From a virus (taxonomy: Duplodnaviria > Heunggongvirae > Uroviricota > Caudoviricetes), in the IMG/VR virus record IMGVR_UViG_2526164602_000031: a stretch of 27,162 nt of DNA; one strand, 5' to 3'. Positions within the stretch are counted from its first letter, which is position 1, and each line of letters begins with the position of its first letter. A program made the position numbers. Shown piece after piece: positions 12,001 through 15,000 of this stretch.

Positions 12001-15000
12001 CTCAGCTTGAGCAGATACGCGTCCTTGGGGAGCAGGGGCGGTCCAGTGATGCTGCACGGATAGCCATGTCTGCACTGGCAGAGGAAACCGGTCGGCGTAC
12101 TGCGGATATTGATAATAACCTCAATGCGCTTGGCAGTACGCTGAAGTATCTGTCTGATTTGTGGAGTCGTTTCTGGGATGCGGCCATGAATATTGGTCGT
12201 GAAGACTCGCTGGATGAACAGATTGCCGCTTTACAGGAGAAAGTGTCGCGGGCGAAAAGACTCCCCTGGACGGCATCATCTTCTCAGGTTGAATACGATC
12301 AGCAGCGTCTTAACGATCTTCAGGAGAAAAAACGCCAGAAGGATTTGCAGGATGCAAAAGAGCAGGCAGAGCGGAATTATCAGGAGCAACAGAAACGCCG
12401 TAATGCTGAAAATGCTGCACTGAACCGGATGAATGAAACGGAAGCAGCACGACATCAGCGTGAAATAGCGCGTATTAATGCCATGCAGTACGCCGATCAG
12501 GCTGTCAGGGATGCGGCGATACAACGTGAAAATGAACGTTACGAGAAAGCCCTGGCATCCGGTAAGAAAAAAACACGCGAAACCCGTAATGATGAGGCCA
12601 CCCGGTTATTGCTGCAGTACAGTCAGCAACAGGCACAGGTGGAAGGACAGATTGCTGCTGCCAGACAGTCTGAACCGCCCCGGAAATCCTGGAGACTAAA
12701 CTCCCTGAGAAAGAGGTAAACAGGATGACTAAAAATACTCGTTTTTCCCCCGAAGTCCGTCAGCGGGCGATTCGTATGGTTCTGGAAAGTCAGGATGAAT
12801 ATGACTCACAGTGGGCGGCAATTTGTTCCATTGCCCCAAAGATTGGCTGTACGCCGGAGACTCTGCGTGTCTGGGTTCGCCAGCATGAGCGGGATACCGG
12901 GGGCGGTGATGGTGGGCTCACCAGCGCTGAACGTCAGCGTCTGAAAGAGCTGGAACGTGAAAATCGTGAACTGCGCCGCAGTAACGATATCCTTCGCCAG
13001 GCTTCCGCTTATTTTGCGAAGGCGGAGTTCGACCGCCTCTGGAAAAAATGATGCCACTGCTGGATAAGCTGCGTGAGCAGTACGGGGTCGGACCGGTATG
13101 CAGCGAACTGCATATTGCCCCGTCAACGTATTACCATTGTCAGCAACAGCGACATCATCCGGATAAACGCAGTGCCCGTGCGCAGCACGACGACTGGCTG
13201 AAGAGAGAGATACAGCGCGTATACGATGAAAATCATCAGGTGTACGGTGTGCGTAAAGTCTGGCGTCAGTTGTTACGGGAAGGAATCAGGGTGGCCAGAT
13301 GTACAGTGGCACGTCTCATGGCGGTTATGGGACTTGCCGGTGTTCTCCGGGGTAAAAAGGTCCGTACGACCATCAGCCGGAAAGCCGTTGCCGCAGGCGA
13401 CCGCGTAAACCGTCAGTTCGTGGCAGAACGACCTGACCAGCTGTGGGTGGCTGATTTTACTTACGTCAGCACATGGCAGGGCTTCGTCTATGTGGCGTTT
13501 ATCATTGATGTGTTTGCCGGATACATCGTGGGGTGGCGGGTCTCATCGTCTATGGAAACGACATTCGTGCTGGATGCGCTGGAGCAGGCGTTGTGGGCCC
13601 GTCGTCCGTCTGGCACCATCCATCACAGCGATAAAGGCTCTCAGTATGTGTCACTAGCCTATACGGAGCGACTAAAAGAAGCCGGATTACTGGCATCAAC
13701 AGGGAGTACAGGCGACTCGTATGACAACGCGATGGCTGAGAGCATCAATGGTCTTTACAAAGCGGAGGTAATACACCGTAAGAGCTGGAAAAACCGTGCA
13801 GAAGTGGAACTGGCCACACTAACGTGGGTGGACTGGTATAACAATCGACGATTGCTGGGAAGGCTGGGCCATACTCCTCCGGCAGAAGCAGAAAAAGCTT
13901 ATTATGCTTCCATCGGAAACGATGATCTGGCAGCCTGAGTTCACAGATAAAACACTCTCCAGGAAACCCGGGGCGGTTCAGTCAGCAGGCATTGCCACGG
14001 AAAGGATGACAGAAGCGCGTAAACAGCTTCTGGCTCTGCAGCAGCGCATCAGCGACCTGGACGGGAAAAAACTGACGGCAGATGAAAAGAGTGTGCTGGC
14101 CCGTAAAGATGAACTGATTCAGGCACTGACGCTGCTGGATGTAAAACAGCAGGAGCTTCAGAAACAGACGGCACTCAACGAGCTGAAGAAAAAAACAATT
14201 CAGCTGACCAGTCAACTGGCTGAAGAAGAGCGCGCTCAGCGTCAGCAACATGACCTGGATATCGCCACGGTGGGTATGGGTGATCAGCAGCGACAGCGAT
14301 ATCAGGTACAACTGAGTCTTCGCCAGAAATACCAGCAACAGCTGGAGCAGTTGAGGCGGGATAGTGAGCAGAAAGGGACATATAACACGGATGACTACAG
14401 AAAGGCCGAGCAGGCGCTGACGGAGAGCCTGAACCGACAACTGAATGAGAATCGCCGTTACTGGCAACAGCTTGAAGTTGTACAGGGTAACTGGAAAAAC
14501 GGAGTCCTGCGTGCATTTCAGGATTTTACCGTGGATGCAGATAATACGGCAGAAACAGCAGAACAGGTGTTCTCGTCAGCCTTCAGCAACATGGGAAATG
14601 GCCTGGCAACTTTTGTCACTACCGGCAAACTCAATTTCAAATCCTTCACCTCTTCTGTGCTGTCAGATATGGCGAAAATCCTGGCGCAGGCAACCATGAT
14701 GAAATCGATAAAAGGGATTGGCAGTGTACTGGGATTTGATCTCAGCAGCCTTTCCCTGAATGCCAATGGGGGGATTTATCAGTCTGCTGATTTGAGTCGT
14801 TACAGTGGCACGGTGGTTAACCGTCCGACGTTTTTTGCTTTTGCAAAAGGCGCGGGTGTGATGGGGGAAGCGGGACCTGAAGCCATTCTGCCATTGCGTC
14901 GTGGTGCTGACGGTAAGCTGGGGGTTGTGGCGGATATTGGGGGTTCAGGTATGGCGATGTTTTCCCCGCAGTACAACATCGAGATCAATAACGATGGCAC

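Follow-up and report, generated by a model that had tools for sequence, protein, structure and literature searches.

The stretch of DNA analysed here, hereafter the window (27,162 nt, from the Caudoviricetes record IMGVR_UViG_2526164602_000031), contains a block of phage tail genes in the order G-T-H-M-L-K-I-J, in which the tape-measure gene, H, is interrupted by a complete copy of IS629. The T3SS effector genes nleB2, nleC and nleH1 lie downstream of the tape-measure gene, and a frameshifted portal gene lies upstream (Table 1).

Table 1 Features of the interrupted tape-measure locus, in window coordinates.
Feature	Position	Strand	Detail
Portal gene, +1 frameshift at ~5108	4085-5594	+	AATTTTTT in place of A-GTTTTT
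Tail assembly chaperone genes G and T, directly upstream of the tape-measure gene	10005-10771	+	Pfam Phage_TAC_2, Phage_tail_T
5′ part of the tail tape-measure gene (lambda H type)	10743-12670	+	Codons 1-642 plus 2 nt
Target-site duplication GTC, left copy	12668-12670	.	Sequence reading
Complete IS629 (O157 type; PGAP label 'IS1203 family')	12671-13980 (1310 bp)	+	Same orientation as the tape-measure gene
Left terminal inverted repeat	12671-12695	+	First 13 nt, TGAACCGCCCCGG, perfect
orfA, 108 aa, HTH transposase N-terminal protein	12725-13051	+	Pfam HTH_Tnp_1
ALIL pseudoknot RF01497, frameshift stimulator	13006-13122	+	Rfam 121.5 bits, E = 1.2e-32
orfB, 296 aa, DDE (rve) catalytic part	13048-13938	+	Pfam rve, HTH_21, rve_3
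Right terminal inverted repeat	13956-13980	+	Ends CCGGGGCGGTTCA, reverse complement of TGAACCGCCCCGG
Target-site duplication GTC, right copy	13981-13983	.	Sequence reading
3′ part of the tape-measure gene	13984-15121	+	Codons 643-1021 plus stop; frame differs from 5′ part
Tail genes M, L, K, I, J, downstream	15121-20926	+	All intact ORFs; colinear annotation in F8798
nleB2	23420-24400	+	Coordinate transfer from Sakai/F8798 annotation; identical to Sakai
nleC	24434-25453	+	Coordinate transfer from Sakai/F8798 annotation; identical to Sakai
nleH1-1	26281-27162	+	Coordinate transfer from Sakai/F8798 annotation; identical to Sakai

IS629 (also IS1203 or IS1203v) is present in at least 20 copies in E. 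coli O157:H7. The copy in the window has the 5′-TG...CA-3′ termini of the IS3 family, and a repeat finder returned arms of 26 nt that are imperfect (88% complementary) except for their outermost 13 bp. Extension of the flanking GTC repeat to 4 bp proved impossible, which leaves a duplication of 3 bp; IS629 target-site duplications are 3–4 bp long (PMC3271280). The two transposase frames meet at an A6 slippery run (13043-13048), where a predicted −1 shift would give a 404-aa OrfAB. When reconstructed in silico, this protein matched the IS3-family model NCBIfam NF033516 from end to end with 366 bits (cut-off 160), and a gene caller applied to the identical IS copy of the O157:H7 strain F8798 also returned a product of 404 aa.

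Many O157:H7 genomes carry IS copies with 100% identity to the element over all 1310 bp, and PGAP names these copies 'IS3-like element IS1203 family transposase'. Alignment also bears out the name IS629 given in the original prediction, with 100% identity to the depositor-annotated IS629 OrfA/OrfB of Stx2a_F422 (AP012531) and 99.9% to the 'insertion sequence:IS629' feature of CP-1639 (AJ304858). Given this identity to both O157 copies and annotated IS629, a chance match is excluded. The double naming arises because the IS629 copies of O157 form subtypes, one of which is nearest to the isoform IS1203 (Rump et al. 2011, PMC3271280), and IS1203 is itself counted as an isoform of IS629 (PMC3271280). 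In length, termini, orfA/orfB organization, frameshift with ALIL pseudoknot, DDE transposase and 3-bp duplication the element is like known O157 IS629 and shows no difference from it; only the place of insertion is unusual. On its sequence, we therefore regard it as an intact IS3-family IS629 in which every defining feature is present.

The consequence for the tape-measure gene can be read directly from the frames. The 5′ open reading frame continues into IS629 and ends at a TAA (12717-12719), giving 642 native and 16 IS-encoded residues (658 in total), and on the other side a mechanical ORF (13904-15121) starts at an ATG within the element. Removal of 12671-13983, that is, of the IS and one GTC (1313 nt), yields a single ORF of 1021 codons plus stop (3066 nt) that equals Sakai ECs_0837, the tape-measure gene of prophage Sp3, at every nucleotide. 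Because 1313 mod 3 is 2, the two halves lie in different frames as long as the IS is present. The original prediction had placed the element, its inverted repeats and the flanking GTC at coordinates that all proved right, and had joined 10743-12670 to 13984-15121 in frame after precise excision into about 1020 codons; the join holds, with 1021 codons, but 'in frame' is true solely of the excision product made in silico.

The assignment of the gene to the lambda H type also stands, both from its position between G/T and M and from the domains found by Pfam in the restored protein: TMP_2 (residues 228-426, E = 4e-49), TMP_4 (residues 616-693, E = 3e-16) and Tape_meas_lam_C (residues 811-885, E = 5e-22). 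The insertion cuts TMP_4 at codon 642/643, and with the gene split at this point no single frame of the window encodes a full-length ruler. We therefore class the gene in the window as a pseudogene of the lambda-type (gpH-like) family. The TMP_2 and Tape_meas_lam_C domains and the gene order G-T-H-M-L-K-I-J are common to this gene and lambda gpH, whereas the restored protein of 1021 aa is not close to gpH (853 aa) in sequence, and 'gene H' is used here as a name by analogy. A truncated N-terminal or a restarted C-terminal fragment of the tape measure could in principle be made, and any polar effect of IS629 would fall on M, L, K, I and J. Outward sigma-70 promoters were sought in IS629 and in the DNA on either side of it, with 0 promoter-like sites as the result, and terminator-like sites in the same interval were no more frequent than expected by chance.

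Colinearity of the window with Sakai Sp3 extends from the lysis genes through nleH1. Upstream of the insertion (1-12670) the identity is 99.99%, with 1 mismatch in 12670 nt, and downstream (13979-27162) it is 99.2%, with all differences but one confined to a ~2.3-kb patch of gene J (17350-19684), which corresponds to J of another resident prophage. The sole mismatch outside this patch falls in the 22000-22499 bin, upstream of the effector genes. The patch indicates that recombination among lambdoid prophages happens at this locus. Compared with Sakai Sp3 and its EDL933 counterpart CP-933K (lambda-like, with nleB2-nleC-nleH1-nleD), the window has the same portal frameshift, tail genes and effectors, and it alone has the tape-measure IS629 and the J-gene patch. 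From this colinearity we assign the prophage to Sp3/CP-933K of E. coli O157:H7. The ybhB junction of the prophage is visible in the Sakai and F8798 loci; the window ends short of this region.

The prophage was already damaged by older mutations. The portal gene of the window matches that of mEp460, a viable phage with a 502-aa portal, at 99.1% apart from one extra base in a run of T at ~5108, through which the frame ends after ~350 residues. Pfam Phage_portal_2 accordingly covers profile positions 3-324 of 354 only on the 374-aa portal ORF, and the remainder of the gene is annotated in Sakai as pseudogene ECs_0827. We read the portal frameshift as an older morphogenesis defect, independent of IS629. 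In Sakai Sp3 the repressor and antirepressor are absent and the integrase is disrupted (Asadulghani et al. 2009, PMC2669165); replication functions are likewise absent, recombination genes are disrupted and the portal is defective, and experiments on circularisation, replication and packaging were all negative (PMC2669165). The integrase, repressor and replication defects are those of the Sakai allele as described there and are carried over to the present prophage, the early region of which lies beyond the window. Sakai Sp3, although scored as defective in that study, has an intact tape measure.

The interrupted allele is rare. Among the 1,857 complete E. coli genomes that contain the segment, the tape-measure junction is uninterrupted in 1,828. 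The 800-bp sequence of the empty site is 100% identical to Sakai ECs_0837, and the same allele is present in EDL933 and many other O157 genomes. A query made of the IS with 300 bp of each flank gave a one-piece 100% match in 1 complete genome, O157:H7 F8798, in which PGAP annotates two tape-measure pseudogene halves flanking the IS, and the exact 658-residue truncated product was found on 2 contigs only in a large assembly index, F8798 being one of them. The allele is hence already public through the RefSeq annotation of F8798. F8798 differs from the window in lacking the J-gene patch and in carrying an extra IS629 in inverted orientation, which lies ahead of the terminase genes at the equivalent of window 806/807. 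A simple-offset map to F8798 had suggested that the window starts inside this second inverted IS629; the idea was rejected, as BLAST shows 806/807 to be an empty site.

The IS does not differ from its sister copies, its duplication shows no change and the flanks equal the empty allele; with the low counts above, this makes the insertion recent and lineage-specific as well as rare, and the reading of a simple, recent insertion in the original prediction is thus upheld. IS629 is mostly prophage-resident in O157 (62% of sites), and the catalogue of 47 IS629 sites from four reference O157 genomes includes none in Sp3 (PMC3271280). Our literature search found no description of IS629 in the tape-measure gene of Sp3/CP-933K.

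The same gene has been hit elsewhere. IS629-family insertions occur at five positions of the tape-measure gene among complete genomes, each with its own 3-bp duplication. Besides the GTC site at nt 1928 of the gene, where the copies of the window and F8798 are identical, O157-type IS629 is found at nt 295 in strain 143 (CAC), at nt 1537 in F6667 (CAT), both with 2 mismatches to the window copy, and at nt 2246 in strain 319 (ATA), with 1 mismatch; for nt 2246 the junction was read in strain 319, and nine more genomes share the three-piece match pattern only. A different subtype is present at nt 2506 in NZRM4165 (CAG; 65 mismatches to the window copy) and, again at nt 1928 with GTC, in E203449 (52 mismatches). 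E203449, from Mali, carries an Sp3-like prophage with ~97% identity to the window across 7.9 kb, and a second copy of its IS, 100% identical, is present elsewhere in the E203449 genome. A shared orientation across all five sites was dropped as an artefact of the search, which joins pieces on one strand.

We are highly confident that the locus reflects a recent insertion of IS629 at codon 642/643 of the Sp3/CP-933K tape-measure gene in O157:H7, a probably neutral hit on an already fixed remnant that left the effectors untouched. A misassembly would be the trivial alternative, given that IS629 is a multi-copy element (median 4 places per genome, maximum 53) and such elements are a classic source of mis-joins. 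However, a copy wrongly placed into the tape-measure gene is hardly credible in view of the perfect 3-bp duplication, the exact reference gene obtained on excision, the same junction in the independent complete genome of F8798 and a truncated product called on two contigs. We also consider it highly improbable that the insertion is ancient, shared by descent with E203449 and lost from most O157 by precise excision. Site, orientation and GTC duplication are the same in the two strains, and precise excision promoted by IEE is known in O157, but the IS copies differ at 52 of 1310 positions (4.0%), the tape-measure flanks differ by roughly 1–2% (from bin counts), and within each genome other copies match the IS at 100% identity. 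Descent would moreover need loss in nearly every O157 lineage, and the flanks in the window match the empty Sakai allele at 100%. Two independent insertions at one nucleotide, in the window and in E203449, are the most economical reading.

A third alternative is that a functional, transmissible effector phage became defective through the IS629 insertion. The split in the tape-measure gene is real, the other tail genes (G, T, M, L, K, I and J) are all intact ORFs, and the annotations of the Sakai and F8798 loci give terminase and lysis genes as intact. We nevertheless regard such a conversion as very unlikely, as the portal of the window is frameshifted independently of IS629 and Sakai Sp3, with its tape measure intact, shows no excision, replication or packaging and is without repressor, integrase and replication functions (PMC2669165). 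The original prediction held that a split tape measure should prevent tail assembly, so that the effector genes downstream would ride on a prophage that can probably no longer make infectious particles. The effector genes, nleB2, nleC and nleH1, are indeed downstream, and the prophage very likely yields no infectious particles. The causal part did not stand: because the portal is frameshifted and Sakai Sp3 is defective with an intact tape measure, IS629 is neither necessary for this state nor its origin.

In the reading that we favour, a recent insertion into an already immobile remnant, a copy of IS629, an element that moves by copy-out/paste-in with an OrfAB transposase made through −1 programmed frameshifting, entered codon 642/643 of the gene and duplicated GTC. 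The native tape-measure sequence now stops after residue 642, and the last 379 residues, among them the lambda-type C-terminal domain, fall in another frame. From this truncation and displacement, and by analogy with lambda gpH genetics, we infer that the split gene no longer yields a functional tail ruler. The mobility of the prophage is unaltered in this reading, since Sp3 was already a fixed, non-inducible remnant, and nleB2, nleC and nleH1 are untouched. As the effectors were already on an immobile remnant, the IS is an additional, probably neutral hit, an instance of neutral IS traffic into non-essential prophage DNA. Precise excision of IS629/IS1203v occurs at high frequency in O157 with IEE and an active transposase (bioRxiv 10.1101/2023.06.07.543989), and IEE-promoted excision could in principle reverse the insertion.

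Comparable cases are the IS in nu1 of Sp4 and the IS629 copies in Stx-phage genes, which are simple hits by the same element in non-essential late genes (PMC2669165; depositor annotations). The present case differs in its target gene and in that the hit adds to pre-existing defects rather than being the first. Strain polymorphism through IS629 insertion in prophage genes is well documented for O157, and the biological weight of this insertion is small. It corrects the idea that IS629 stranded nleB2, nleC and nleH1, the remnant having been immobile already, and it means that one tape-measure gene is lost from the pool of tail genes that O157 lambdoid prophages share through complementation or recombination. 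As a rare lineage-specific marker, the allele is usable for IS-typing or outbreak tracing.

If anything at this locus is new, it is the recurrence at a single nucleotide. By our own estimate, the prior for such a coincidence under uniform targeting is ~0.2%, given five other insertions and a searchable target of ~2.9 kb. Two IS629 subtypes at the same nucleotide in two unrelated E. coli strains are hence a modest anomaly that may reflect a local target preference. Whether GTC at nt 1926-1928 is a true preferred target of IS629-family transposases is a tentative matter, and we hold it to be possible but somewhat less than an even bet; if true, the site preference could expose the target-recognition rule of a medically relevant IS. 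No target consensus was found among eight IS629-family insertion sites, in agreement with Rump et al., who describe IS629 as being without a target pattern (PMC3271280). As a side observation, a hairpin predicted at the empty site has a value of about −12 kcal/mol, a raw figure that supports no conclusion, and a short CTGCTG...CAGCAG inverted repeat has the GTC site at its 3′ edge.

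The E. coli strain E203449 carries an IS629 of a different subtype in a homologous tape-measure gene; it differs from the window IS629 at 52 of 1,310 positions, but lies at the same nucleotide, in the same orientation and with the same GTC duplication. E203449 is an unrelated strain, and the shared position suggests that the site is a possible hot spot for IS629 insertion. Four more independent sites in the tape-measure gene are occupied by IS629-family elements, each with a separate 3-bp duplication. In two unrelated phage-like elements (loci L008 and L009), the tape-measure gene is likewise interrupted by the E203449 subtype. 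The L008 copy lacks a target duplication and lies next to a truncated gene, suggesting an IS-associated deletion.

Positions of IS629-family insertions and other features in the window and in loci (L) extracted from other genomes
Feature	Source	Position	Remark
IS629, different subtype	L004, E. coli E203449 (NZ_CM128603)	3301-4610	in homologous tape-measure gene
IS629-family insertion	L003, strain 319	gene nt 2246	tape-measure gene; own 3-bp duplication
IS629-family insertion	L005, F6667	gene nt 1537	tape-measure gene; own 3-bp duplication
IS629-family insertion	L006, strain 143	gene nt 295	tape-measure gene; own 3-bp duplication
IS629-family insertion	L007, NZRM4165	gene nt 2506	tape-measure gene; own 3-bp duplication
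IS629, non-O157 subtype	L008, E203449	3501-4810	interrupts tape-measure gene
IS629, non-O157 subtype	L009, plasmid pM160133_p3	3501-4810	interrupts tape-measure gene
Second IS629	L001, F8798	1624-2933	inverted; between lysis genes and small terminase subunit gene
Portal gene	window	4085-5594	frameshift at about 5108; compared with mEp460
Gene J	window	17513-20926	intact ORF, 1137 aa
Tail-fibre gene	window	21650-22972	

The portal frameshift is an older defect, common to the window and Sakai Sp3. Compared with mEp460, a viable phage whose portal has 502 aa, the window gene has one extra base in a T-run, which breaks it up into an ORF of 374 aa and a remnant further downstream.

At gene J, window 17350-19684 shows 104 differences when compared with the J gene that Sakai and F8798 have in Sp3. 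From approximately 17800 to 19800 it is identical to the J gene of another lambdoid prophage in EDL933 (NZ_CP008957, 1.73 Mb). The patch looks like a gene-conversion tract of approximately 2 kb between resident prophages, and the J reading frame is unbroken.

The second IS629 of F8798 lies approximately 11.9 kb from its tape-measure copy and is absent from the window, in which the empty site is at 806/807; the two F8798 copies could bring about an inversion or behave as a composite element. Within the tail-fibre gene, six degenerate 35-nt direct repeats (window 22433-22728) encode collagen-like Gly-X-Y tracts.
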